DNA of 64,000 bases from Chthoniobacterales bacterium (lineage in GTDB: Bacteria; Verrucomicrobiota; Verrucomicrobiia; Chthoniobacterales; UBA10450): NCBI GenBank assembly GCA_038237805.1, contig JBBRYI010000003.1, forward strand, positions 183,594 through 247,593, given 5' to 3'. Both the position numbers and the translations under genes were made by a program. This document shows positions 1 to 62,987 of the stretch, piece by piece. The notes under the pieces are model-generated. The model ran no database searches and had not been told where the DNA came from. It saw only the letters and a program-made list of their open reading frames with translations. Positions within the stretch are counted from its first letter, which is position 1. Each line of letters starts with the position of its first letter.

Positions 1-508
1 TGAACATCTCTACGTCGATCATCCCCTTATCAATATGACCAGACTCGATCTGGCGAAGGAGACTCTTGATTCCGTCGATGATTTCCAGCCGACCGCCATA
101 ACTCAACGCAAGCACGAGCGTCAACCCGTTGTTCTTGGAAGTGCGCTCGATCGTATCGTGCAACTGCCGCTGGCACGCGTCCGGAAGATCAGTTAAACGT
201 CCGATCGCTTGCAGCCGAACATTCTTTTCGACAAGCTCCGGCGTTTTCTCCTTTAAGAAACGTTCGAGCAATCGCATCAAGGCGAAGACTTCGCTCTTCG
301 GTCGCTGCCAATTCTCAGCCGAAAATGCATACAGCGTGAGGTACTCGATCTTCAGTTCGCCGCATCCTTCGACGCATTCGCGCACGGCTTGTGCGCCTTG
401 TTCATGACCTTTTATGCGCGGCAGTCCACGCGTCTTCGCCCAGCGTCCGTTGCCATCCATGATGATGGCGACGTGACGCGGGATGAGTTTCGTTGGCGCT
501 GCGGCCAT
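1..508 (-). CDS. uppS: Undecaprenyl/isoprenyl diphosphate synthase (cis-prenyltransferase); C-terminal part cut by window edge
   Basis: Not in the ORF track because it runs off the window. My own minus-strand translation from the ATG at 506-508 gives MAAAPTKLIPRHVAIIMDGNGRWAKTRGLPRIKGHEQG...YLTLYAFSAENWQRP. The DGNGRWA and FSxENWxRP signatures are typical of UppS. Confidence 0.85.
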   Translation of the reverse strand, partial: MAAAPTKLIPRHVAIIMDGNGRWAKTRGLPRIKGHEQGAQAVRECVEGCGELKIEYLTLYAFSAENWQRPKSEVFALMRLLERFLKEKTPELVEKNVRLQAIGRLTDLPDACQRQLHDTIERTSKNNGLTLVLALSYGGRLEIIDGIKSLLRQIESGHIDKGMIDVEMF

Positions 509-513
509 GAGGT

Positions 514-1878
<1,365 letters not shown>

Positions 1879-1976
1879 TCAAACGCAAACTACGGCGCAT
1901 GAAATTGCGGGCGATTTTTGCGTACTGCGGAAGAAAAATATTGCAATCCGATCAGCGGGCGACATAGCTTCCCGCC

Positions 1977-2120
1977 ATGCGCACCATCCTGCTTATCATT
2001 CTGGTTCTTCTGTTGCTCGGGTCATTGCCGGCCTGGCCCTACAGCACAGGCTGGGGTTACTATCCCGGCGGCGGCCTGCTCGTTTTGATTATTTTGATTC
2101 TGTTACTCTGGCGAGCGTAA
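1977..2120 (+). CDS. Small hydrophobic protein, DUF3309-like (47 aa)
   Basis: Below the ORF-track cutoff. My own translation is MRTILLIILVLLLLGSLPAWPYSTGWGYYPGGGLLVLIILILLLWRA*. The two hydrophobic segments around a WxYSxxWGY core match what I recall of DUF3309. Confidence 0.45.
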   Translation: MRTILLIILVLLLLGSLPAWPYSTGWGYYPGGGLLVLIILILLLWRA

Positions 2121-2139
2121 GGCGGCGCGACGCGAAAAC

Positions 2140-2168
2140 GTAGAGGCGCTTGTGCCAGGCGCCGCTAC
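2140..2168. repeat. REP-like element (GTAG + imperfect palindrome) between convergent genes
   Basis: The sequence gtagaggcgc-ttgtgccag-gcgccgctac forms a 10-bp stem with one mismatch. It belongs to the same family as the elements at 5739, 42728, 59792, 59846 and 62947. It lies between the stop codons of the DUF3309-like gene and the M23 peptidase gene, so it could act as a bidirectional terminator. Confidence 0.55.
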
Positions 2169-2174
2169 AAAACT

Positions 2175-2879
2175 TCAGCGCTTGGCTGTCAGGGCTTGCT
2201 TCAAAGCAGCGGCAGATTGTGACGTGCCTTGCGCACGCCGACGGAAATTTCGCGCGCCTTCGACATTGTATTTCGCGTCGTGCGCGAAAGTATTCATCGC
2301 GATCGGGTATGATCTTTTCGCTGTCTGCAAACGGCGATGTGAGAGAAGGAATCTGCTGGGATCGTAATAATTGCTCAGGTCACGACGAAACGCCGCGCGA
2401 CTCATTCCAATTTCGAGATTTTTACGAATCTCGAGATGAAGATGCGCGTCGTAGACGCCGTGCGCAGTCCCAATCGTTGCCAATTGTTGACCACGCACGA
2501 CGCTTTCGCCGACTCGCACAAGAATTGAATTCAGATGACCGTAAAGCGCGTCGATGTTCTTGACGCTGCCGACTTCACGAAAAGCGTATCGGACGATTAC
2601 GACATTCCCCCATCCTAGGTGCACATCGCGGGCAAATACCACCACGCCATCGCCAATGCTATAAACCGGATCGCGGAGATCGGTGTTGCCTCCGCCAAGT
2701 CCGTCCCAATCTTCGCCAAGATGTCCATTGGCGCGAAAACCGCGCGCTTTGTAATAGCCCCTGCCGTCTGGTTTGCCGACAGGAAAATCAAAGCCGTCGG
2801 CTAAGCGCGTAAATGCTGTCTGCGCCTGTGCGGTCACGGCAACGCCGAGAAGCGCGCTCAGAAGAAACTTTTTTACCAT
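2175..2879 (-). CDS. Secreted M23-family metallopeptidase
   Basis: Signal peptide MVKKFLLSALLGVAVTAQA. Contains the HxxxD motif (HLGEDWD) and the HxH motif (AHLHLEIR) of LytM/M23 peptidases. Confidence 0.8.
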   Translation of the reverse strand: MVKKFLLSALLGVAVTAQAQTAFTRLADGFDFPVGKPDGRGYYKARGFRANGHLGEDWDGLGGGNTDLRDPVYSIGDGVVVFARDVHLGWGNVVIVRYAFREVGSVKNIDALYGHLNSILVRVGESVVRGQQLATIGTAHGVYDAHLHLEIRKNLEIGMSRAAFRRDLSNYYDPSRFLLSHRRLQTAKRSYPIAMNTFAHDAKYNVEGARNFRRRAQGTSQSAAALKQALTAKR

Positions 2880-2955
2880 GGCCGGCGCCGGTTGTATCTA
2901 ACCGGGCCGGAATAATCAAGCAATAACTACGGAATTTATGGTAAATGCTCGTTTC

Positions 2956-3357
2956 TCACCCTGTCTTTACTCGCACCACAGGCAACGGAAATCGCAGCCG
3001 CATTTCTTCCCCAAGATAAATCTCTACATGGTGCAACCCGAATTGCTGAAACTGCACGCCCCCGAAGTAATGGACATTCGTGGCATGGCCTTCCATTTCT
3101 TTCAGTTCAAATTCCACCTCGGCTTGAGCGACCACTTGCTGTTCGTCCACTCCAATGATCCGCGACTTCTGCCGAAACTTTCCCATCCCGCCGCACCATC
3201 GCGACCATATGCAAAGACGCATGTAGTTGATCGGTAGCGTCGGCGTCGGAATTACGTTAAGCACACCGACCAGCGTCTGCATGCCGTTGAACTCGCAGCG
3301 CACATCTTCGCAAAGCACGCAGCTTTGCAGGTCGGGCAGAATCGATTCTGATTCCAT
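2956..3357 (-). CDS. Hypothetical protein (133 aa)
   Basis: ORF 2956..3528 trimmed to the Met of MESESILPDLQSC (3355-3357), because the upstream part overlaps uppP. I recognise no motif. Confidence 0.45.
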   Translation of the reverse strand: MESESILPDLQSCVLCEDVRCEFNGMQTLVGVLNVIPTPTLPINYMRLCIWSRWCGGMGKFRQKSRIIGVDEQQVVAQAEVEFELKEMEGHATNVHYFGGVQFQQFGLHHVEIYLGEEMRLRFPLPVVRVKTG

Positions 3358-3362
3358 CTTGG

Positions 3363-4232
3363 TTAAAAGAAACCGCGCGCCGCTAAGACGAGCAAAACAA
3401 TACCGAGCGCGATTCGATAAATGGCAAATGGAGTGAAGCCTCGGGTGCGCACCCAGCGCATGAACCAGGCGACCACCACGAGCGCGACGACGAACGAAAC
3501 CGCGAAGCCGATGGCTAATACGATCCATTCGTGGTTGTTCATCGCCAGAGGTGCAATGGCAGCGTCCCCCGGAGAGCGTTGATGCGGCGCGACGGTTTTC
3601 AAAAAATCGTAACTCGTCGCCGCCAGCATCGTCGGGATGGACAGGAAAAAAGAAAATTCAAGAGCGGCTGAGCGTGATAATCCTGCTAATTGGCCCGCGG
3701 CGATTGTGCACATCGAACGTGAGGTCCCAGGGAAAATTGCGGAAAGGATCTGCGCCGCGCCGATAAAGGCGGCCTGCGGAAGCGCCATCCTTTCCATCTC
3801 CTGAACGCGCGGCCGATTACAAAACGTATCGACGATCCACATGATTGCACCGCCGATTAGCAGCGCCCAGGCAATCAATGAAATATTTTCCAGGTTATGG
3901 CCGATCTGTTTTTTCAGCGCCCATGCTGGAATCGCGGTGATGACAAAAGCAATTAGAATCAAACTCACCGGATGTGTCAGCACCGAGCGATCGCCGCGCT
4001 CGCCATTCGGAAAGGTGCGGAGAAATTTGGCGATCCGATGACGGAAAAAAATCGGTAGCGCGAGAATCGCTCCGAGCTGAATCACAATCGTGTACATTTT
4101 CCAAAAGCTGCTGTGCAGATCGAGGCTAAACAATGCCTCAACAATTCGCAGGTGAGCCGTTGAGCTTACCGGTAGGAACTCAGTCAACCCTTCCACCACA
4201 CCGAGCAATACAGAGAGAAAATAATCGTTCAC
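3363..4232 (-). CDS. uppP: Undecaprenyl-diphosphate phosphatase (BacA/UppP)
   Basis: Contains VVEGLTEFLPVSSTAHL and GTSRS motifs and is a multi-pass membrane protein of 289 aa. Confidence 0.9.
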   Translation of the reverse strand: MNDYFLSVLLGVVEGLTEFLPVSSTAHLRIVEALFSLDLHSSFWKMYTIVIQLGAILALPIFFRHRIAKFLRTFPNGERGDRSVLTHPVSLILIAFVITAIPAWALKKQIGHNLENISLIAWALLIGGAIMWIVDTFCNRPRVQEMERMALPQAAFIGAAQILSAIFPGTSRSMCTIAAGQLAGLSRSAALEFSFFLSIPTMLAATSYDFLKTVAPHQRSPGDAAIAPLAMNNHEWIVLAIGFAVSFVVALVVVAWFMRWVRTRGFTPFAIYRIALGIVLLVLAARGFF

Positions 4233-4292
4233 TATTTACAGCAGCCGTTTGGTTGTTTTTTCCGATTTCCGCGATCCGGTTTCCGATTTTGC

Positions 4293-4655
<363 letters not shown>

Positions 4656-4675
4656 TCAAAGCGCAAGCCAAGTGC

Positions 4676-5686
4676 TCAATGGGTCGTATCGTCGATCAGC
4701 GCCAACTCTGCTTCTACCATTTCGCGGACAAGCTGCTGAAAGTTTTTGGACGGTTTCCAGCCGAGTGTCTGCGCGATTTTTTTCGAATTACCTACGAGCA
4801 TCGTAGGGTCCGCAATTCGATCGAAAGCGGCATCGTGCTTCACAAATTCTTCCCACGACAAATTTACTGTCGCGAAAGCAGCTTCCACAAAATCGCGGAC
4901 GGAATGACTCTCGCCCGTCGCTACAACATAGTCGTCCGGTTTATTGTGCTGCAGCATTAGCCACATCGCGCGGACGTAGTCCTGTGCGTGTCCCCAATCG
5001 CGCCGGTTACCCAAATTCCCGAGCGCTACTTCGCGATCGAGCCCCCGTGCAATGCGCGCCGCCGCGCGCGAGATCTTGCGTGTGACAAAATTTTCGCCGC
5101 GCCGCGGCGATTCGTGGTTATAGAGAATGCCGTTGCAAACAAACAGGCTGTAAGAACGGCGATAAACTTGTGCGAGTTGCGTCGCAAATGCTTTTGCGCA
5201 GCCGTATGGACTCACTGGGCGTAGCGCTGTTTCCTCAGTCTGCGGCGTTTCGGTGGCATCTCCGAAAACCTCTGAGCTGGCTGCGTGATAAAATCTAATC
5301 GGCTGCCGTTGATCGCGCGTTATCTCGAGCAAACGCAGTGTTGCCATAGCGACTTCTTCGCAAGTTGATTCCGGAATTTCAAAACTGAGTCCGACGTGGC
5401 TTTGACCGGCAAGATGATAAACTTCGTGCGGTCGCACTTCGGCAAAGATTCTTCTCAACGTGGTACCGTCGGAAAGATCGCCGTAGTGCAAAAATAATCG
5501 ACGCTCATAGATATTTTCGTCGCGTCGCAGATGCTCGATGCGCGAGCGCAAAAGATTACTCGTTCGCCTAACGACACCATGGACCTCGTAACCTTTTTCC
5601 AAAAGCAGCTCAGTCAGGTAGGAACCATCCTGACCGGTGATTCCCGTGATCAATGCAACTTTTGTCTCGTCGTTATCGGTTGTCAT
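4676..5686 (-). CDS. gmd: GDP-mannose 4,6-dehydratase
   Basis: Contains ALITGITGQDGSYLTELLLEKGYEVHGVVRRTS plus YGCAKAF (the YxxxK motif). Start set at MTTDNDE (5684-5686). Confidence 0.9.
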   Translation of the reverse strand: MTTDNDETKVALITGITGQDGSYLTELLLEKGYEVHGVVRRTSNLLRSRIEHLRRDENIYERRLFLHYGDLSDGTTLRRIFAEVRPHEVYHLAGQSHVGLSFEIPESTCEEVAMATLRLLEITRDQRQPIRFYHAASSEVFGDATETPQTEETALRPVSPYGCAKAFATQLAQVYRRSYSLFVCNGILYNHESPRRGENFVTRKISRAAARIARGLDREVALGNLGNRRDWGHAQDYVRAMWLMLQHNKPDDYVVATGESHSVRDFVEAAFATVNLSWEEFVKHDAAFDRIADPTMLVGNSKKIAQTLGWKPSKNFQQLVREMVEAELALIDDTTH

Positions 5687-5738
5687 CAATCGTTCCCAAC
5701 ATGCTACGAAGCTCGGCCTCTGCACAAGGTCGAATGAT

Positions 5739-5765
5739 GTAGCGGCGCTTATGCCAGGCGGCGGA
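5739..5765. repeat. Degenerate REP-like element
   Basis: The sequence gtagcggcgcttatgccaggcggcgg is close to the 2140 copy but has a decayed stem. It sits in the gmd/wzm divergent intergenic region. Confidence 0.4.
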
Positions 5766-5817
5766 AGATTATGCTTCCATTGTGTGGTGGCGGGATTGTT
5801 GCTACAATCGCATCTGC

Positions 5818-6648
5818 ATGTCCCACGAAGTCACTGAGCTCATCATCGAAGCCGGCCATACCGAGCGCAATTACTGGCGTGATCTATTCCGGTATCGCGA
5901 GCTTTTTTATTTTCTTGCCTGGCGCGACGTCCTCGTTCGCTACAAACAAACCGTCATCGGCGTTCTTTGGGCCGTCTTGCGTCCGCTGCTCACGATGGTT
6001 GTGTTTACGTTCGTCTTCAGCCGCATCGCGAAGTTACCTGCGGAAGGCGTGCCTTATCCGGTGATGGTTTTTGCCGCCATGCTTCCGTGGCAATTGTTCG
6101 CCACCTCACTCACGGAAGGCAGTGGCAGCCTTATCAATAATTCCAACCTCATCTCGAAAGTCTATTTTCCGCGTCTTATTGTTCCCGCAAGTTCCGTCAT
6201 CGTTTCCTTTGTCGATTTTGCCATCTCCATGGTGCTGCTCGGAATACTGATGGTCATCTATCGCGTTTGGCCCGGCTGGACGCTCCTGACGCTTCCAATC
6301 TTCACCGCTCTCGCGCTGCTCGCCTCCGCTGGCGCCGGTATCTGGCTCGCTGCGCTGAATGTGAAGTATCGCGATTTTCGCTACGTCGTGCCGTTCATCG
6401 TTCAGTTTGGTCTCTACATCTCACCCGTCGGTTTCAGCAGCTCCATTGTTCCTGCGAAATGGCGTCTGCTTTATTCGTTCAATCCGATGGTTGGCGTAAT
6501 TGATGGTTTCCGCTGGGGCATCTCCGGGGGTAACACCGCGTTTCCGACTCAAAGTCTCGAGATTTCGCTCATTACTACTGCCATCCTTCTCTTCACCGGC
6601 ATTTGGTATTTCCGTAAAACCGAGCGCACCTTCGCGGACGTCATCTGA
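5818..6648 (+). CDS. wzm: ABC-2 type polysaccharide/O-antigen export permease
   Basis: Contains RELFYFLAWRDVLVRYKQTVIGVLWAVLRPLL, typical of Wzm/KpsM/TagG, and about 6 TM segments. Start chosen at MSHEVTE (5818). Confidence 0.8.
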   Translation: MSHEVTELIIEAGHTERNYWRDLFRYRELFYFLAWRDVLVRYKQTVIGVLWAVLRPLLTMVVFTFVFSRIAKLPAEGVPYPVMVFAAMLPWQLFATSLTEGSGSLINNSNLISKVYFPRLIVPASSVIVSFVDFAISMVLLGILMVIYRVWPGWTLLTLPIFTALALLASAGAGIWLAALNVKYRDFRYVVPFIVQFGLYISPVGFSSSIVPAKWRLLYSFNPMVGVIDGFRWGISGGNTAFPTQSLEISLITTAILLFTGIWYFRKTERTFADVI

Positions 6649-6822
6649 TTAAAAGCTGAGATGTTAAACGGCTCAGCCGGCCGGTCACAGATTTCCGCTT
6701 TTCAGCTTTCAGCGTTTTCCGGGTCAGATTCCCAATCTTTTATCTTTTCAGTTTTCCGGGTTTTCCATATTGTCCCGATTCACAAGAAGCCATTCACCGG
6801 CCCTATGCCTTCATCATTCACC

Positions 6823-8820
6823 ATGAAAAATCCAACATTAACAATTCTGTTTGGTGCCGTTTGCATCTTCGCGAGTAAAGCAAACGCGGCATCAGTCATG
6901 ATTACTGGACAAACCGCGGGTCCGACGCCGTTCATTAGCGACCTTCAACTAAGCGCGAGTCCACCGGACTCGATCAAAAGTATAAAGTTTCAGATTGCTC
7001 CCAAGACGGGATCAGTCACACGCCCTCTGGCTGCAACCTACTCTAGCCAGTACCTGACGAAACGCGGTTACTACAATTCGCAGACGGGTGCAATTCTTTT
7101 GCCGGTGTTTGGTCTCTACGACAATTACGCCAACGCCGTTTTACTAACTTACGTGTTCACCGATAACTCGTCGCAGCAAGCGAGCGTCATGGTTACTACG
7201 CCCTTGTTTGCCGACCAATGCAGTTACAGCAATCCCACTGTTATACAAGCCAGGACGAATAGCACCACACTGAGCTACGATTACATTTTAACCAGGAACA
7301 GGTGTGGTAGCTTTTCGCCTGTTATTATTGATACTGATGGACGACTTCGCTGGGTCGGTACGGTAGGGTTCGCCGATTTGCCTGCAACGCTGTTCCAGAA
7401 CTCGATCTATATTGGCCACGGGCCAGTACTTTATCGCATGGAACTCGACGGCACATTTGCTGTCCTGCGAGATTACAGTAGCGGTGGGGTCATTAATTTT
7501 CACCACAACATCGATTTAGGTAAACGCGGGCTCATAGTAGATGTAGACACTCCCGCACAGGTTGAAGCTACGAACATGGAAATCGATGGTCTGGGCAATA
7601 TTCTAAAGACATGGAACCTGGCTAACATTATTACCGCTGCCATGACCGCTGGAGGCGATGACGCAACTCAGTTCGTCAAGCCCTCGCCCAATGACTGGTT
7701 TCACAACAACGCTACCACGTACAAAAAATCTGATGACTCATTGCTCGTTTCCAGCCGTGAAAATTTCGTTATCGCACTGGATTACACAAGCGGCGCCATT
7801 AAGTGGATTTTGGGTGACGCCACCAAGCAATGGTACCAGTTTCAGTCGTTAAGAAACTTTGCGCTTACACTTGATACCAATACGCTTCCTCCCATTGGCG
7901 AACATGCTTTATCAATCACGAAGGATGACAACCTGTTACTTTTTGATAACGGCAGGAATAGTATAAATAACACGCCCCCGGGGGACAATCGCACCTACAG
8001 CGCTCCTCGTAAGTATCAGATAAACACTCAATCAAAGGTGGCAACGGAACTCTGGAACTACCCGAATAACCAGGCTCTGTACAGCGATATTTGTTCCAGT
8101 ATCTATGAAGACAGTCCACTGAATTATTTAATCGATTACGCCCACATAGTTAACATCAGCCCACCCGCCCTGTTTGCGGAGATCCTCGGTCTGGATGCAT
8201 CAGGGAACAAGATTTTCGATTATCGATATCCCACCGCGAGTTGTAACACCGCATATAACTCTATCCCGGTTCATTTGGAACAAGTCATGTTTAAGACGAT
8301 CGTTCCGCCTACCGCAGTCTCTCGTAAATCTCATGGATCGGCCGGGACGTTCGAAGTCCCATTGCCGCTGAGTGGCACAGCGGGCGTTGAATGCCGTTCC
8401 GGTCATGCTGACGGCAGCTACCAGGTGGTAGTAACTTTCGCCATTCCAGTGACAATTACGTCTGCGACGGTGGTCCCAGGCAGTGGCGCCACGGGGACCG
8501 TTGTAGGTGCTCCTAGTGTTGCCGGGGCTGAAGTAACTGTGGACCTCACAAACGTCGGTAACGCCCAAACGCTAACGGTAAATTTAGTTGGAGTAAACGA
8601 TGGCTCGAATACGGAAAACTTTTCCGTACCGATGAGTGTGCTTGTTGGCGACACGACCGGTAATGGCTCCGTCAATTCAATTGACATAAACCAGGTAAAA
8701 TCGCAATCGGGGACCGCCGTGACAGCTGCGAACTTCCGGGAAGACGTAACCGCAAGCGGAGCGATTAATAGCTCGGATATAACTTTAACCAAATCGAAAA
8801 CTGGAAGTGGCGTTCCTTAG
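6823..8820 (+). CDS. Secreted aryl-sulfotransferase (ASST)-like beta-propeller protein with C-terminal dockerin-like repeats, paralog 1
   Basis: Signal peptide MKNPTLTILFGAVCIFASKANA. Contains FHHNID, DWFHNNATTYKKSDDSLLVSSRENFVIALDY..G.IKWILGD and GEHALSIT.DDNLLLFDNG, which resemble my recollection of the AssT family. The tail GDTTGNGSVNSIDINQVK / ASGAINSSDITLTK resembles dockerin type I repeats. Start trimmed from 6661 to 6823. Confidence 0.55.
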   Translation: MKNPTLTILFGAVCIFASKANAASVMITGQTAGPTPFISDLQLSASPPDSIKSIKFQIAPKTGSVTRPLAATYSSQYLTKRGYYNSQTGAILLPVFGLYDNYANAVLLTYVFTDNSSQQASVMVTTPLFADQCSYSNPTVIQARTNSTTLSYDYILTRNRCGSFSPVIIDTDGRLRWVGTVGFADLPATLFQNSIYIGHGPVLYRMELDGTFAVLRDYSSGGVINFHHNIDLGKRGLIVDVDTPAQVEATNMEIDGLGNILKTWNLANIITAAMTAGGDDATQFVKPSPNDWFHNNATTYKKSDDSLLVSSRENFVIALDYTSGAIKWILGDATKQWYQFQSLRNFALTLDTNTLPPIGEHALSITKDDNLLLFDNGRNSINNTPPGDNRTYSAPRKYQINTQSKVATELWNYPNNQALYSDICSSIYEDSPLNYLIDYAHIVNISPPALFAEILGLDASGNKIFDYRYPTASCNTAYNSIPVHLEQVMFKTIVPPTAVSRKSHGSAGTFEVPLPLSGTAGVECRSGHADGSYQVVVTFAIPVTITSATVVPGSGATGTVVGAPSVAGAEVTVDLTNVGNAQTLTVNLVGVNDGSNTENFSVPMSVLVGDTTGNGSVNSIDINQVKSQSGTAVTAANFREDVTASGAINSSDITLTKSKTGSGVP

Positions 8821-42693: not shown

Positions 42694-42727
42694 GTGGCGC
42701 GTGCTTCCAGCTTGCGGTCCTATAGAT

Positions 42728-42755
42728 AGGCGCTCGCCGCGACGAGCGCCTCTAC
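42728..42755. repeat. REP-like hairpin + CTAC
   Basis: The sequence is aggcgctcg-ccgcga-cgagcgcct-ctac. It sits in the kynB/aldehyde dehydrogenase divergent intergenic region. Confidence 0.5.
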
Positions 42756-42852
42756 AATTTTTTGGCGAGCGCAGCCGAGACATCTCTCATCCATTCCTTA
42801 CCCTGCGCAGTCTTATTGAGCCGCGTCCGTTCAATGCTTAGACTCTCCTGTT

Positions 42853-57118: not shown

Positions 57119-58261
57119 CTAAGGTGCAGCTAAGACGTAACCAAGGGGTAGCGTAGGCCCAAAGTTCCAACCATTAAAAACAGTATTACTTAAGTACCAC
57201 AATGCTGTTTGATGTGATCCCGGATTATAAAGCACAAAGTCTGGCTTGCCGTCGAGGTTAAAATCGGCTACTCCAACTAATTGATAACCACTTGCGATAA
57301 TTGGTCCCAAGGCGCTGCTGGAATAGGCAGCTCCTGACAAGTAGTAGATAGCTGATCTGTGAGTGCTCGGATTGAAAAGCGCAAGGTCGCGTTTGCCATC
57401 CCCGTTAAAATCTGCAGCCCCCGCAAACATGTAACCAGAAGCTAGCGTCGGTCCGTAGGCGGACCCGCTATAAGCGTTACCGTTAAGGTAATAAATCGCT
57501 GTTCCGCGTGTAGCCGAATTGTAGAGAAGATAATCCGGTTTTCCGTCCCCGTTAAAATCAGCAGTCGCTACTAACGTATACCCGACAGCAATCGTCGGCC
57601 CGAACGCTCCGCCAACCCGCGCTCCTCCCGATACGTACCAGATCGCGGTTTGACGCGTCCCAGGATTGAAGAGAGCATAGTCGGGCGCGCTATCGCCGTT
57701 GAAATCTGCCGTATCTACCAGGTTCCATCCAGCAGGCAGGCTCGGGCCATAAGCACCACCAATCTTCGTGTTATTATTCAGATACCATACAGCGGTTTGG
57801 TGTGTCGTTGGATTGTAAAGTACATAGTCGACCTTGCCGTCACCGTTGAAATCTGGCTGGGAGAGGCTTGCGGAGTACACCGCGGTCATTGTGTGACCAG
57901 CATCCATCGTCACACTCGTTAGGCGGCTCGTGTCCCAGTCCGAGCCGTCCCGCTGCCATTTTCGGAAAGTGTTGCCGTTTGTAGTCGGAGGAGCAGTTAA
58001 GCTGACGTTTGTGTTGGTGCTGTAGGTGCGCGTAAACTGAGTTATCCCGTCACCCGCACCATTATTATCATTGGGACTCACTTGAATATTTACCCCGTTG
58101 CTTGGATTCAATGACGCCACCGTGAGCGTTTGAGTTGCGGACACGACTAAATCGTAACCGATCACATCCAGATTGATGCCTTCTGGCGAAGTGGCTGTGA
58201 CATCCGAATATTGTCCCGCACAACTAAAGCATTTTGAACATAGGGCTGGGCTTGCGGACAA
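57119..58261 (-). CDS. FG-GAP/VCBS-repeat protein; probably the C-terminal part of a frameshifted larger gene
   Basis: Five or more repeats of the DFNGDGK(P/V)DY.L(Y/F)N..T..TA.WY type. Its first ~12 codons overlap the upstream ORF in another frame. Confidence 0.6.
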   Translation of the reverse strand: MSASPALCSKCFSCAGQYSDVTATSPEGINLDVIGYDLVVSATQTLTVASLNPSNGVNIQVSPNDNNGAGDGITQFTRTYSTNTNVSLTAPPTTNGNTFRKWQRDGSDWDTSRLTSVTMDAGHTMTAVYSASLSQPDFNGDGKVDYVLYNPTTHQTAVWYLNNNTKIGGAYGPSLPAGWNLVDTADFNGDSAPDYALFNPGTRQTAIWYVSGGARVGGAFGPTIAVGYTLVATADFNGDGKPDYLLYNSATRGTAIYYLNGNAYSGSAYGPTLASGYMFAGAADFNGDGKRDLALFNPSTHRSAIYYLSGAAYSSSALGPIIASGYQLVGVADFNLDGKPDFVLYNPGSHQTALWYLSNTVFNGWNFGPTLPLGYVLAAP

Positions 58262-59442
58262 CTTCCACTGAACCAGTCGCCAAAGTCTCCAGACGGATCC
58301 TGGTTGAAATCGACTATATCCGTCGTGCCACTGTTGATGGAGAAGTAACGCGTTCCCGAGGAGCTAAAATTTCTCACGCCAGACGATCCCCAACTAAAAA
58401 GGTCTTGCGGCCGGTAATTGGTGTCCCTGTTTATGTCTGATCCGAGTCCCATGACCTCGTCGATCTCATGCTCAGTCGTCCGCAGGGCGTCGTAATTGTT
58501 TGCAGTTGTCGGCCGGGTGAACTGAAACGAGGCGCCCGAATTGAGAGTTATCGTCGCATCGTATGTACCTCCGTTGTAGGATAGGCCGCCAGGAGTGTTG
58601 AATCCCACCGCTCGCCCGTTCGCACTGCTAACAATGATATTAGTAGATAGGGCACCAGGTGGCAGGCTGGCGTTTGCCGTCGTGTCATTGGACGTTTTTG
58701 CGTCCGCCATGAGCGCGGAGACAAAAGCGTTCCATTGCACGCTATAAATCGAGGTACAGCTTCGCCCCAGGAACCCACCGCCTATAGGACCACACGGGTC
58801 CGCCGAAGTCGTCCAGCGAAAAACAATATTGATAGTAATTGGGTCTGTGAAGAGCGACTCCTCAATATTGATGGCCTGATTGATCATCGATTCTATTGCT
58901 ACCGCGCTCGGATCGTTGAGAATCGTACTGTCGAACGTCGCATTGATGATCAGACCCGTAGTCGCAGTCGTCGCAACTCTCATCACGTCGGACTCTCGGC
59001 CGGTACCGAATACGTTATAGGCGCGAACGCGATAGTAGTAGGTCGCGCCTTTGCGCAGTCCTGTGACCACGCGTCCAGTTACATTACCTACATCCAGATC
59101 TCGATAGCCTTCTACAAAATCGGCGAACGCACTGCTAGTCGAAACATCCAACCGATAACCGGACGCTCCCGGAACACTGGCCCACCTCGCCATGAAGCCT
59201 GTTCGAGTAGCCACGGGCAATATCGTTGCCAGCTCCATCTCGTTCAAGGTTTCACTTGTATTTTTGGCGAACATGCCAGCCGGGTGGGTGACGTGCGCGC
59301 GCGCACCCGCGAAAAAAGAGCTGGGAGCCTGTTGACCTCGTCCAGATCCAGCGATCACAAGCCCAATACCAGTCAAACACAGTGCAACAATGATTACGAT
59401 CCGTAGATTACGAACTCCGATTTGCACGGTTTCAGCTTTCAT
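58162..59442 (-). CDS. Secreted zinc metalloprotease (HExxH; NF038122-like) with an N-terminal FN3-like domain; the 3-prime end is probably frameshifted
   Basis: Has an N-terminal TM/signal segment, an FN3-like segment (GYRLDVSTSSAF..GATYYYRVRAYN) and TEHEIDEVMGLGS (HExxH). Confidence 0.65.
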   Translation of the reverse strand: MKAETVQIGVRNLRIVIIVALCLTGIGLVIAGSGRGQQAPSSFFAGARAHVTHPAGMFAKNTSETLNEMELATILPVATRTGFMARWASVPGASGYRLDVSTSSAFADFVEGYRDLDVGNVTGRVVTGLRKGATYYYRVRAYNVFGTGRESDVMRVATTATTGLIINATFDSTILNDPSAVAIESMINQAINIEESLFTDPITINIVFRWTTSADPCGPIGGGFLGRSCTSIYSVQWNAFVSALMADAKTSNDTTANASLPPGALSTNIIVSSANGRAVGFNTPGGLSYNGGTYDATITLNSGASFQFTRPTTANNYDALRTTEHEIDEVMGLGSDINRDTNYRPQDLFSWGSSGVRNFSSSGTRYFSINSGTTDIVDFNQDPSGDFGDWFSGSCPQAQPYVQNALVVRDNIRMSQPLRQKASIWM

Positions 59443-59791
59443 CGATAAACGCTTATAGTTAATTTTCCTCCCTATAGCCAGATTACATAGAGAATGCCCA
59501 ACGGCGAATGAAAGCTACTGGTTAGTTTACCTAAGTAACAAGGAACGAAGTACCAGTAGGACAGCCGAGCAAGAGAAAACCGATGGCAGAGCGTGGGGGA
59601 GGAAACTGAAACCTTCAAGGCCGGGGGTTTTCCCCGACCACATCTGTTCTTCTTTTTTTACGCAAACAAAATGTGCACTTCTCGACATTTTCTTCGCAAT
59701 CGATCATGTGGCTGGGCTTGCCTTTGGTGGGAATGTTTGCCGCCCGGCGATTCACCGCGCCGCGCGCGTTAGCTAAGGCTGGTGCAAAGTT

Positions 59792-59870
59792 GTAGCGGCG
59801 TTTGTGTCAAACGCCGATGCGAGCCGCACTGGCATCTAATTAAACAGGCGCTTGGCACAAGCGCCTCTAC
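59792..59870. repeat. Inverted REP doublet (REPIN-like)
   Basis: The first unit, gtag-cggcgtttgtgtcaaacgcc, is at 59792-59815. The second, aggcgcttggcacaagcgcct-ctac, is at 59846-59870 in the opposite orientation. Confidence 0.55.
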
Positions 59871-59933
59871 AATTCATCCCGCATTTTCCTGAATCCAAAC
59901 CGCCTTCCCGCCGCATCCATATATATAGACACC

Positions 59934-60317
59934 ATGGAAACTTCATACCCATCACCACCGCCTCTCCCCGCCCCCGCCGTTACCAACGTGCGTACCTGGA
60001 ACGCGCTTTGTCATGCCAGCGCTTTGCTCGGCGTCTTTCTTCATTTCCCCGGCCACCTGCTCGGGCCGCTCATCGTCTGGCTGGCCAGGCGCGGCGCCTC
60101 GCCCGAGATCGATGCGCACGGCAAGGAAGCGCTCAACTTCCAGATCTCGATGCTCATCTACAACGTTATCGCCGCGGTCTTTTGCCTCATCCTGGTCGGC
60201 TTCGTTTTCCTGGCCATCCTTTGGGTCCTCAACGCCGTCTTCGTCATCATCGCCTCCATCCAGGCGAGCGACGGAAAATTCTATCGCTACCCCATGACGA
60301 TTCGGTTCATTCAATAA
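59934..60317 (+). CDS. DUF4870-like small membrane protein
   Basis: Contains NALCHASALLG....HLLGPLIVWL.....SPEIDAHGKEALNFQIS plus TM segments and YRYP near the C-terminus. Confidence 0.65.
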   Translation: METSYPSPPPLPAPAVTNVRTWNALCHASALLGVFLHFPGHLLGPLIVWLARRGASPEIDAHGKEALNFQISMLIYNVIAAVFCLILVGFVFLAILWVLNAVFVIIASIQASDGKFYRYPMTIRFIQ

Positions 60318-60508
60318 TACAGTCCAAGCGCGTTCCGCATTTCGTCTTCCACTCCGCAATCCGCGTTTCGTTGCTGTCAGCTATTCCGTTTTTCAACTTT
60401 TAAGTTTCGATAGTAAGCTCTGACCCCTTCAGGATTTCAGATTTTGCTCGGTGCGTGTTGATAATGAGCTCAATTTGACAGACCGAACTTAGGATAGAAA
60501 CTGATCAA

Positions 60509-61630
60509 ATGAGTGCCCCAGACGCTGAAACAGAAAAGCAGTCGGGTAATGGAAAAGGATCCCAATCGTCCACGCCCCATGTTCGAGCGACACTAGCCGA
60601 AACCCCTGCGCCCGCGGAACCACCCTTGTCGTCCGACACCGTTGATTCACCACCCATTCCGCCGGTCGCTCCTCCCGCCGACTCCAGCCCCAAAGCTCAA
60701 CCGATTCCCGAGACGCCGCCTGCACCGAAAGAGAAATCGTATCGCGAGCTCTTTGACGATTTTCTCAGTATCATTTTCTCAGAAAATCCCTTGGGAAATC
60801 GTCCCGCTTTAAATGCGAGTATCCAAGCTCTTCTAGGAAGCATTCTCAAAGATCATCCTATCCATTCGAATTATCGTGTCCTTGTGATGTTCGATAAACT
60901 CACGCCGATGCGGCAAGACACTGACAAGGTTTATCAAGCTCTCACTGCTTTAAAGGAAACTGAGAAGCCCATCGCATTGGTGATTCATTCTGGTGGCGGG
61001 GAGGTTGATGCTGGATACTTAATCAGCAAACTTTGCCGGGAATTTTCGCCCGAACATTTCATTACGATCGTCCCGCGGCGAGCGAAGTCGGCTGCAACGC
61101 TGATATGCTGCGGCGCTGATCAAATTCACATGGGCAGCATGAGCGAGTTAGGACCGATAGATCCGCAGGTTGGCGATATGCCGGCTCTAGGCCTGAAAAA
61201 CGCGATCCAGCATTTGCTAGATTTAGCCGGCCAGTATCCCGGCGCGTCCGATGTGCTCGCGAAATACCTGGATTCGTCGCTCAAATTGATAAACCTAGGA
61301 TATTATGAGCGAGTAGCCGAATCGGCCGCGCAATATGCAGAACGGCTTCTTAAAAAACGCAAAACGGTGAATGAAATAGCCCCGGGAACAATAGCGAATA
61401 CTCTGGTTTACAACTACAAGGACCACGGTTTCGTCATCGACACGGGCGAAGCGGAGGCCATTTTCGGACCAAACATCATTATTACAAACTCCGCCGAGTA
61501 CAACATGGCTAACGCTCTGTATAACACGTTGTCTTCGATAGAAAGCATGTGTGATGCTGCGGGCTATGGCTTCTATTTTTACGGCTCTTTGAATTCGGTT
61601 CCGCAGATTTATGCGCGAAAGAAGAAGTGA
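60509..61630 (+). CDS. SDH-family / SppA-like Clp-fold serine protease with a Pro/Ser-rich N-terminal extension
   Basis: Contains LVIHSGGGEVDAGYLISK and RRAKSAATLICCGADQIHMGSMSELGPIDPQ (Ser nucleophile context). The first ~80 aa are low complexity. Confidence 0.7.
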   Translation: MSAPDAETEKQSGNGKGSQSSTPHVRATLAETPAPAEPPLSSDTVDSPPIPPVAPPADSSPKAQPIPETPPAPKEKSYRELFDDFLSIIFSENPLGNRPALNASIQALLGSILKDHPIHSNYRVLVMFDKLTPMRQDTDKVYQALTALKETEKPIALVIHSGGGEVDAGYLISKLCREFSPEHFITIVPRRAKSAATLICCGADQIHMGSMSELGPIDPQVGDMPALGLKNAIQHLLDLAGQYPGASDVLAKYLDSSLKLINLGYYERVAESAAQYAERLLKKRKTVNEIAPGTIANTLVYNYKDHGFVIDTGEAEAIFGPNIIITNSAEYNMANALYNTLSSIESMCDAAGYGFYFYGSLNSVPQIYARKKK

Positions 61631-61756
61631 TGAGCACCTCGCCAGCAATTTCCGACGGGCCATATCAACCCAAGAACTATCTCGGGCTTGGCAGCAAGCT
61701 GTGACCGCTTTGGCAACCTCTTCTCGCTCTCCAGTTTCCGGGTCGTCGGAGTTGGA

Positions 61757-62860
61757 ATGAGTAAGCCTGCATTCGAGCTTACTGCGGTCTACCGGCAAGA
61801 AGTCGCTCGGCTTTTATCTGCCCGACAAGAATCCAAGTTGATCCACTCAGCCGGCGACATTGACGCAAGCGGCGACCAACTTGAAGCAGCGTTTCGCGAA
61901 ATGTTAAGAAGAAAGCTACCGCGTCAGTATTTTGTCGGGCATGGTCATGTCGTAGACGAATCGCTCGCGGTAAGCCGGCAATTTGACGTCATCATCGCTG
62001 ACAATAGTGCCACACCGATCCTCTTTGAGGCAGAAAACGGTAGCCAATACTTTCCCTGGGAATCGGTCTACGCAGTCGGGGAGATCAAGTCTACTTACGC
62101 CAAGAACAAACATTACATCAGCAGCTTCGCTAAAAACGTGGAGAACCTTAAGACCACCCTGAAGCGTGAACCGACACCGCCTAACTATTTGGGGAATGGA
62201 GTAACTCTCGGTACAGGTTTGTCTACGGATGAATCGAGGCCGTATCGAAACCCACTATTCCAGTTCATTGTATTTTTCGACTCCGGAAACATGACAGTAG
62301 CAAATATAGCTCGCGAATACACAAATAGCGCAGATCAAAATCTGCCCGTGATTTCAGTTTTCCTTGATGGAAAAATCGTCGTGAAGGCGGAACTTGCCCG
62401 CGCTGAGGGCGGCGGTGTTAAGTTAGGCAATATTGATTTAGACCCACTGAGAGTTGCTGAGCGCGCTGATATCGACTGGATGTGTATCTCCTATACGGAT
62501 ATGCCCGATAAAGGAGCGCATAGTGTCGTGGCATTCATGCTTGGCCTGTTCAGTCATTTAAACGCATGCGTATTAATGCGGCCCCGCGTCAATAACTACT
62601 TACACGCCGTCCTTGAGTCGGCGCGCCACCAATCTGAGGCGGTTTCGTTGAAGGGCCAACTTAAGATTGCCGAACTCAGTGGTTCAAAAATCCCAGAAGG
62701 GGCTATCAGCTTTCTCAAATATAGAGAAGCTGCAGGTCGGTCGCCATTCGGCAAAGTGAGTGACAAAGAGTTACAGAAATACTTCAAAGAGACCGGAGAG
62801 ACGGAAGAGTCTTTGTTCGCTTCATCCCAGTCGGAGCAAAGTGACGCTCCATCAGGGTAG
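61757..62860 (+). CDS. PD-(D/E)xK nuclease-fold protein (DUF6602-like) with a C-terminal extension of about 200 aa
   Basis: GDQLEAAFREMLRRKLP....GHGHVVDE....SRQFDVIIAD......E.......WESVYAVGEIKS matches the D...ExK core and my recollection of DUF6602. Start set at MSKPAFE (61757), with GGAG upstream. Confidence 0.6.
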   Translation: MSKPAFELTAVYRQEVARLLSARQESKLIHSAGDIDASGDQLEAAFREMLRRKLPRQYFVGHGHVVDESLAVSRQFDVIIADNSATPILFEAENGSQYFPWESVYAVGEIKSTYAKNKHYISSFAKNVENLKTTLKREPTPPNYLGNGVTLGTGLSTDESRPYRNPLFQFIVFFDSGNMTVANIAREYTNSADQNLPVISVFLDGKIVVKAELARAEGGGVKLGNIDLDPLRVAERADIDWMCISYTDMPDKGAHSVVAFMLGLFSHLNACVLMRPRVNNYLHAVLESARHQSEAVSLKGQLKIAELSGSKIPEGAISFLKYREAAGRSPFGKVSDKELQKYFKETGETEESLFASSQSEQSDAPSG

Positions 62861-62946
62861 CGCGTGTAGGGCGTCAACTGGTGGGGATCAGAAGGGGGTC
62901 GCATCTATATTTTTGAAATTTCATTTTCGAATAGCACGCGGCAGTT

Positions 62947-62969
62947 GTAGCGGCGTTTGTGTCAAACGC
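62947..62969. repeat. REP-like element; the 27 nt at 62943-62969 are identical to 59788-59814
   Basis: The sequence agttgtagcggcgtttgtgtcaaacgc is identical in both places. Confidence 0.55.
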
Positions 62970-62987
62970 GGACTACTAATTAGATTC

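Follow-up and report, generated by a model that had tools for sequence, protein, structure and literature searches.

Adjacent genes for a ClpP-fold protease and a NucC-fold nuclease in a Chthoniobacterales bacterium are probably two solitary accessory genes and not a defence module

Introduction

On one contig of a Chthoniobacterales bacterium (GenBank assembly GCA_038237805.1, contig JBBRYI010000003.1), a gene for a serine protease of the ClpP/SppA fold is followed, in the same direction, by a gene for a PD-(D/E)xK nuclease. We analysed both of them within positions 183,594 to 247,593 of the forward strand of this contig, a stretch of 64,000 nucleotides (nt) which is called the window below and whose first letter is position 1. 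An earlier note on this DNA had grouped the two genes with a small DUF4870-like membrane protein gene into an islet bounded by repeats, and it had proposed that the protease and the nuclease constitute an uncharacterised defence or abortive-infection module. All three open reading frames (ORFs) are indeed present as claimed there, together with the motifs that were quoted for them. Their positions, and those of the repetitive extragenic palindrome-like (REP-like) repeats around them, are given in Table 1.

Table 1. Features of the protease-nuclease locus, in window coordinates (aa, amino acids)
Feature	Position	Strand	Evidence or remark
REP-like repeat copy 1	59788-59817	+	GTAG, then a GC-rich hairpin with the sequence GGCGTTTG-TGT-CAAACGCC
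Diverged inverted REP-like copy	59846-59874	-	Sequence comparison; forms a REPIN-like doublet with copy 1
DUF4870 small membrane protein (127 aa)	59934-60317	+	Pfam PF09685, E=1.4e-36
Gene (i), SDH-type ClpP/SppA-fold serine protease (373 aa)	60509-61630	+	PF01972
Gene (ii), NucC-fold PD-(D/E)xK endonuclease, DUF6602 (367 aa)	61757-62860	+	PF20247
REP-like repeat copy 2	62943-62972	+	Between the nuclease stop codon and a convergent PEGA-lipoprotein gene

The protease and nuclease families do not occur together outside this genome

Homologues of the nuclease were gathered into 56 clusters at E<=1e-3, and their loci were taken from contigs of a one-genome-per-species set (42 loci), from Joint Genome Institute (JGI) metagenome contigs (80 loci) and from an exact look-up. 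Protease loci came from a look-up, from IMG/VR (9 loci), from plasmids and from phages. When 124 independent nuclease loci were searched by tblastn for the window protease, no match was found; 80 of these loci offered at least 1.3 kb of sequence upstream of the nuclease and 73 at least 1.3 kb downstream. We also ran profile hidden Markov models (HMMs) of both families and of canonical NucC against all six-frame ORFs of the loci. By this measure there were 130 nuclease-positive and 23 protease-positive loci, and both genes stood together in only one of them (L001), which is a Logan contig identical to the window. The partner gene was found in 0 of the 129 other nuclease loci and in 0 of the 22 other protease loci. 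The claimed module is thus not supported: no surveyed locus from any other genome holds members of both families, which is the very outcome that the earlier note had named as speaking against its proposal.

Even the closest nuclease relatives have other neighbours: at L152 (69% identity), a divergent membrane-protein gene and a spacer of 488 nt; at L040/L004 (67-78%), from a Chthoniobacterales metagenome-assembled genome (MAG), a permease gene together with a nucleotidyltransferase-like ORF; and at L079 (70%), a gene for a long repeat protein. The same is true of the closest protease relatives. HEPN and Rep genes adjoin L046 (80% by tblastn), L047 (67%) is flanked on one side by prs, L25 and pth and on the other by a desaturase-like gene, an AAA ATPase with MazG is next to L048 (65%), and L049-L051 (56%) lie between dnaK and groES/groEL.

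No more regular picture emerged from the neighbourhoods as a whole. Clustering of the 641 ORFs located within 4 kb of the nuclease in the 124 loci gave no family present in more than five loci, and the five loci of the largest family belong to a single lineage. A census of the 150 immediate nuclease neighbours with Pfam and PADLOC was heterogeneous, with a maximum of three neighbours per Pfam family. A few defence-type domains do appear in this raw census, namely Pycsar-type TIR, GmrSD, AbiV, LmuB and a STAND NTPase. An orphan restriction-modification system was also considered and rejected, as no methyltransferase recurs among the nuclease neighbours. The one gene met repeatedly beside the protease is a small phrog_1090 gene, which is restricted to one enterobacterial plasmid/P2-like subgroup; the window does not contain it. 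Neither the nuclease nor the protease family, therefore, has a conserved partner.

The nuclease retains the fold and the active site of NucC, while two cA3 contacts are not conserved

The assignment of gene (ii) to DUF6602 PD-(D/E)xK nucleases was borne out by the match to PF20247 (E=1e-21) and by the presence of both FDVIIAD and VGEIKS. Residues 8-135 are recognized by PADLOC models of a Cas-associated PD_DExK nuclease (3.5e-24) and of NucC effectors (1.5e-22 and 2.8e-19), and the family profile, when compared with the PDB, retrieved NucC structures only, with matches that span the nuclease core and have E values from 8e-18 to 2.5e-11. The AlphaFold2 model of the protein has a predicted local distance difference test (pLDDT) score of 92.5, and Foldseek matched it to the whole NucC chain with template modelling (TM) scores of 0.74-0.77 (NucC-normalised) and E of about 1e-13. 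The 14 best PDB matches were all NucC, and the next one had E=0.12. It was previously assumed that about 200 C-terminal residues were unassigned. This is correct only for the last ~75 residues, which are indeed additional; most of the remainder is the rest of the NucC fold. The modelled protein hence consists of a NucC-like body (residues 1 to about 290) and a helical extension of ~75 aa, the latter being present only in closer relatives. Asp77, Glu109 and Lys111 form its active site, correspond to Asp73, Glu104 and Lys106 of NucC, and are invariant in 35 of 35 subfamily sequences.

NucC is reported to contact cyclic triadenylate (cA3) through Arg53, Tyr81 and Thr226, and mutating any one of these residues abolishes its activation. 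All three are invariant in four NucC proteins from plasmid operons of CBASS (cyclic-oligonucleotide-based anti-phage signalling system). Among the 35 sequences of the window nuclease subfamily, the column corresponding to Tyr81 is occupied by Ala (25), Ser (5), Gly (3) and Asn (2), and that of Arg53 by Lys (16), Gln (12), other residues (5) and Arg (1), with one gap; this mapping of NucC residues was confirmed by hhalign. The Thr226 region is not aligned by the sequence profile, and the family consensus is devoid of the GTVP motif. We found no recurrent cyclase or Cas neighbour in the 124 nuclease loci, and no linkage to a CD-NTase or to type III CRISPR in the examined regions of the window. 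Canonical short DUF6602 proteins, which served as positive controls, were located inside CBASS operons on plasmids. Because the Arg53 and Tyr81 contacts are not conserved and no cyclase or Cas10 is linked, the sequences argue that this subfamily does not use cA3.

A direct comparison with NucC (PDB entries 6P7O, 6P7P, 6Q1H, 6UXF and 7ZGV) shows the same mixture of likeness and difference. The whole-chain fold, the ID...E-x-K active site and Pfam DUF6602 are common to both. On the other hand, members of the window nuclease subfamily are longer (290-370 aa vs about 241 aa), the C-terminal half of the window nuclease cannot be aligned by sequence profile, the cA3 contacts Arg53 and Tyr81 are not conserved, and the subfamily never adjoins CD-NTase/HORMA/TRIP13 or Cas10 genes, whereas short DUF6602 proteins do. 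The subfamily comprises at least 185 clusters from bacteria and archaea, and the distribution of the family across both domains is patchy, with high identity and non-syntenic contexts. No member was found in IMG/VR or among GenBank phages.

An integron cassette of a Vibrio holds only a homologue of the nuclease

A full-length homologue of the nuclease (301 aa, 46% identity) is found in Vibrio sp. WZ-1 (L016), where it is the sole ORF between two copies of a repeat of ~129 nt. This locus (1-7862) is an integron cassette array which contains seven copies of the ~129-nt repeat and five copies of a ~124-nt repeat, and the nuclease homologue is a single-gene cassette of this array. The cassette that comes after it encodes a 268-aa protein.

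Cassettes of the chromosomal integron of V. cholerae have been tested before, and a single-gene anti-phage system with DUF6602 was named Damona in that work (Darracq et al., bioRxiv 10.1101/2024.07.02.601686), where it was also matched by the Cas PD_DExK and CBASS_Endonuc_small profiles. In a later preprint, Damona is said to be poorly understood and to induce an abortive-infection response. The window nuclease resembles Damona in that it combines DUF6602 with matches to Cas PD_DExK and CBASS endonuclease profiles, and in that Damona is a single gene without a partner, while the subfamily of the window nuclease includes the single-gene Vibrio integron cassette. It differs from Damona by the additional C-terminal helical extension of ~75 aa. 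By this analogy, the window nuclease would be at least of the same kind as Damona, that is, a stand-alone nuclease with DUF6602 and the NucC fold. The link of the nuclease family to defence, as postulated previously, thus finds support in the PADLOC matches to NucC and PD_DExK, in the NucC fold and in the published DUF6602 system Damona.

The protease belongs to a large family of solitary ClpP-fold proteins

Gene (i) had been described as a Clp/SppA-fold protease of the SDH type, and this description proved accurate: PF01972 matches with 52.8 bits against a cutoff of 31.3, a weaker match to CLP_protease is also seen, and the 373-aa product carries the motifs IHSGGGEVDAGY and RRAKSAATLICCGADQIHMGSMSELGPIDPQ. 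The nearest NCBIfam model is the 'SDH family Clp fold serine proteinase' NF047768. Because the score reached only 60 bits and the equivalog cutoff is 250, the protease belongs, as judged from its sequence, to a subfamily distinct from this equivalog. No PADLOC model matched it. Residues 1 to about 77 make up a disordered tail rich in Pro, Ser and Ala, with AlphaFold2 pLDDT below 60 in this part and 85.7 overall; such an N-terminal tail of 50-100 aa, always variable and of low complexity, is a property of the whole family. Invariant residues are Ser161, Ser194 (in AKSAAT), His207 (in IHMG), Asp305 and His306, with Ser194 and His207 conserved in all 50 protease sequences. A PDB sequence search with the protease profile returned no solved structure, and the fold was assessed by Foldseek instead, which matched the model to SppA and ClpP with probability 1.0 and TM scores of 0.55-0.70. 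In BFVD, the best matches to the model are giant-virus 'serine dehydrogenase proteinases' (Mimivirus-, Klosneuvirus- and Marseillevirus-like), and Hyperionvirus has several paralogues.

With SDH, SppA (S49) and ClpP (S14) proteins, the protease shares the above-threshold PF01972 match, the ClpP/SppA fold and the invariant Ser and His at ClpP-like positions. It differs from them by an extra C-terminal helical domain and the disordered N-terminal tail, and by having neither an ATPase partner nor a membrane anchor. A weak profile similarity to prohead proteases is also apparent (NCBIfam Clp_rel_HeadMat, 2e-09; PHROG head-maturation, 1e-4 to 1e-6), yet the best PHROG match is phrog_11747, of unknown function (5e-28), and the phage homologues occupy moron or immunity positions, next to integrase or XRE/ImmA genes, and not a head module. 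The earlier claim that capsid, portal and terminase genes are absent from the vicinity of the protease was confirmed for 43-64 kb; a prohead protease was rejected, as no portal, capsid, terminase or head module is present in this region.

The family comprises more than 1,850 clusters. Its distribution in bacteria and archaea is patchy, with high identity and non-syntenic contexts, and identity is still ~45% between proteins from MAGs of Verrucomicrobiota, Desulfobacterota, Planctomycetota, Candidate Phyla Radiation (CPR) bacteria and Lokiarchaeota. Some of these contexts are mobile. On the Klebsiella quasipneumoniae plasmid pHNLW22-3 (L132; 4150 bp, ColE1), the homologue is the only large cargo gene; in a metagenome contig it comes after an integrase; and distant homologues are encoded by a P2-like Burkholderia phage, right behind its integrase gene, and by a Klebsiella phage, next to XRE/ImmA immunity genes. 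The closest relative, L046, sits beside HEPN_RiboL-PSP and Rep (REP_ORF2-G2P) genes, a Rep+HEPN element. In this relative (440-1553) the N-terminal tail and the core are in different frames, owing either to a frameshift in a pseudogene or to a fault of the assembly; identity is 80% by tblastn over the core and 87% for the called product of 247 aa. The phrog_1090 protein (89 aa, encoded on the opposite strand) stands beside the protease in five P2-like viral contigs (IMG/VR, L136-L140), and these pairs are located near tail protein D and Dam methylase.

Homologues are also found in housekeeping or metabolic regions, such as those with prs, L25 and pth or with dnaK and groES. In L049-L051 (8001-9035), which come from the Verrucomicrobiota MAG GCA_049521735.1 and from JGI contigs, the homologue (56% identity) lies 21 nt after a gene for a 645-aa DnaK/HSP70 protein and ~100 nt before groES-groEL, which hints at a link of the family to proteostasis in some lineages. 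Nothing relevant came from literature searches on PF01972, on serine dehydrogenase proteinase or on defence proteases of the S49/ClpP-like type, and no paper that links this family to defence was found.

Repeats and base composition do not delimit an islet

The direct repeat reported at 59788 and 62943 is real, with 27 of 27 nt identical (29 of 30 over 30 nt) and 0 such repeats expected by chance. Related REP-like copies occur at 2138-2170, 5737-5770 and 42720-42757 and, inverted, at 59846-59874, which makes a family of at least six copies in 64 kb with the consensus TTGTAG[A/C]GGCG[C/T]TTG, a loop and then CAA[G/A]CGCC. Its core motif TTGTAGNGGCGNTTG is found 13 times with up to 2 mismatches, as compared with 1.5 expected occurrences. 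The copies show compensatory differences in their stems, one copy is fully palindromic, and two of them form an inverted doublet (59788-59874). The region 59780-59875, which contains copy 1 and the inverted copy, is predicted to fold into a long hairpin (-48.2 kcal/mol, z=-5.8). Within the 64-kb window we hence see all traits of REP sequences: GTAG, an imperfect palindrome, intergenic location, dispersed copies and an inverted pair. No REP-associated tyrosine transposase (RAYT) or Y1 transposase was seen in the scanned parts of the window. The designation 'REP-like' given by the earlier note was therefore appropriate, while its use of the repeats as bounds of an islet or cassette was not, as they form a dispersed intergenic family and not the ends of a unique element. 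We rejected them as att sites of an islet, because they are members of this dispersed family.

It was also stated that the stretch is richer in AT than the core genes, and this is true only marginally: the GC content of the protease-nuclease stretch is 0.505 vs a window mean of 0.527 (standard deviation 0.023), which corresponds to the 24th percentile of equal-sized windows, and much lower GC is found at 18-20 kb. GC content is 0.507 for the protease gene, 0.495 for the nuclease gene and 0.589 for the DUF4870 gene. The missing 9-mer TCGTTAGGC, taken previously as another mark of an island, is not diagnostic, as it is absent from 5.6-33.6 kb as well. Low GC and absence of this motif were consequently both rejected as island markers. 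The 9-mer itself is strongly enriched, with 20 copies in the window vs 0.5 expected, 18 of the 20 lying between 33623 and 57924. It is usually followed by G, occurs on both strands in genic and intergenic positions, and has flanks without conserved sequence; it looks like an uptake-signal-like or other selected oligomer.

The DUF4870 gene was rejected as a part of any unit with its neighbours, as it co-occurs with neither gene elsewhere and its GC content differs from theirs. Apart from L001, none of the nuclease and protease loci gave a tblastn match to it.

Two independent accessory genes or a coupled pair

The picture which we consider probable is that of two independent, horizontally mobile, solitary accessory genes that are adjacent here by chance, and not that of a protease-nuclease system. 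We base it on the observed folds, the conserved residues, the absent co-occurrence and the solitary and mobile contexts of both families, and from these we infer an anti-phage role, oligomeric activation and independence of both proteins in vivo. By analogy, the nuclease is most likely a Damona-type, cA3-independent DNA endonuclease of the NucC fold which limits phage. It would act like the single-gene DUF6602 system Damona, as an oligomeric and largely sequence-nonspecific DNA endonuclease; it would be kept inactive until infection, when a cue other than cA3 would switch it on, and degradation of DNA would then stop phage replication via growth arrest or abortive infection. The protease is a cytoplasmic, probably ring-forming serine protease of the ClpP/SppA fold, active-looking and with an intact Ser/His centre. 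Several observations weigh against this interpretation. The two genes are co-directional, the 126-nt gap between them contains no predicted plus-strand terminator, and they may be co-transcribed. Their nearly equal and slightly low GC content is compatible with joint acquisition, and the single adjacency of two rare families could reflect a young functional combination, invisible to comparative data. Moreover, the suggested kinship with Damona is drawn from its domain and profile description, and there was no member named V. cholerae among the 185 subfamily matches obtained with the Vibrio cassette protein as a query.

A two-gene defence or abortive-infection module, with the protease serving, for instance, as a sensor of infection that switches the nuclease on or as a second effector, seems highly improbable to us. 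Its common direction, short gap without a terminator and similar GC would fit such a module, as would the idea that a nuclease devoid of the cA3 pocket residues needs another activating input. Nevertheless, the partner is missing from all the other loci of both families, including those of relatives with 69-80% identity, the C-terminal extension of the nuclease occurs in relatives that have no protease, the nuclease makes up an integron cassette by itself elsewhere and the protease is the sole large cargo gene of a small plasmid, and no PADLOC model matches the protease. We give just as little credence to a recent coupling specific to this lineage, where a pocket-less NucC-fold nuclease would be restrained or activated by the adjacent ClpP-fold protease; such a protease-gated nuclease is a combination without a named precedent, and adjacency is all that supports a coupling of the two genes in this lineage. 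Rather unlikely, though likelier than a coupled pair, is an unrecognised role of the SDH-type protease family itself, as a single gene for defence or for competition among mobile elements. One may also suppose that neither gene is related to defence; the protease would then be a peptidase for proteostasis or housekeeping, and the nuclease an orphan enzyme of a restriction-like or repair type. The position of the protease between dnaK and groES-groEL in a Verrucomicrobiota relative, its location beside prs, L25 and pth and in other metabolic neighbourhoods, the ordinary genes around the window locus and the lack of a PADLOC match for the protease are all in line with this idea. We still regard it as unlikely, since the distribution of both families in bacteria and archaea is patchy, at high identity and without synteny, since plasmids and prophages carry the protease and an integrase adjoins it in one case, since the nuclease is found in an integron cassette and, in some loci, beside TIR, GmrSD, AbiV and LmuB-type genes, and since a DUF6602 gene has been validated as anti-phage (bioRxiv 10.1101/2024.07.02.601686).

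Another conceivable scenario is that the nuclease is a cA3-dependent NucC effector which is supplied in trans, either from a cyclase of CBASS or from type III CRISPR, encoded elsewhere in the genome. The whole-chain NucC fold and the GD..E, LP.xY and R(T/E) motifs, common to the nuclease and NucC, are in agreement with it, and both CBASS and type III CRISPR are known to make use of NucC. It is very unlikely, however, considering that Tyr81 is absent from 35 of 35 sequences and Arg53 from 33 of the 34 with a residue at that position, and that either mutation abolishes NucC activation. In addition, the family consensus has no GTVP motif, cyclase and Cas genes do not recur in the 124 loci while CBASS operons do contain the short DUF6602 proteins of the canonical kind, and the examined regions of the window contain no cyclase or CRISPR. 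Similarly hard to believe is a discrete mobile cassette formed by the 3.15 kb between the identical repeats, which would be its att-like ends. Its two direct repeat copies are identical over 27 of 27 nt, and the other copies differ from them. Yet the repeat belongs to a dispersed GTAG-hairpin (REP-like) family of at least six copies in 64 kb, integrase, transposase and tRNA are all absent, the enclosed DUF4870 gene, with its GC content of 0.589, is unlike the other two genes, and the relatives of the enclosed genes never travel together.

As the proposed two-gene immune system does not stand, the locus itself yields little. The two families are by-products of modest value. Stand-alone NucC-fold nucleases (at least 185 clusters in bacteria and archaea) have kept the catalytic centre but not the cA3 contacts, and this subfamily poses a question for the published Damona-type defence, namely what replaces the cyclic-nucleotide trigger. 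The other family, that of the solitary ClpP-fold protease, is large (more than 1,850 clusters) and unusually conserved, and it turns up repeatedly on small plasmids and in the moron slots of prophages.

Surroundings of the locus

The 14 kb upstream of the locus encode an aldehyde dehydrogenase, a histidine kinase, a kynureninase-like enzyme, a methyltransferase, an FAD monooxygenase and similar metabolic or regulatory proteins. Neither an integrase nor a cyclase nor CRISPR was found in the 14 kb surrounding the locus, and there is no tRNA gene within the 64-kb window. A gene for an FG-GAP repeat protein lies nearby and contains five copies of a 147-nt periodic repeat (ORFs 57119-58261 and 58162-59442, both on the minus strand). 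The longest ORF of this protein overlaps by 100 nt the end of the upstream ORF for an fn3-like secreted protein, and one start codon in this pair of ORFs is probably mis-set.

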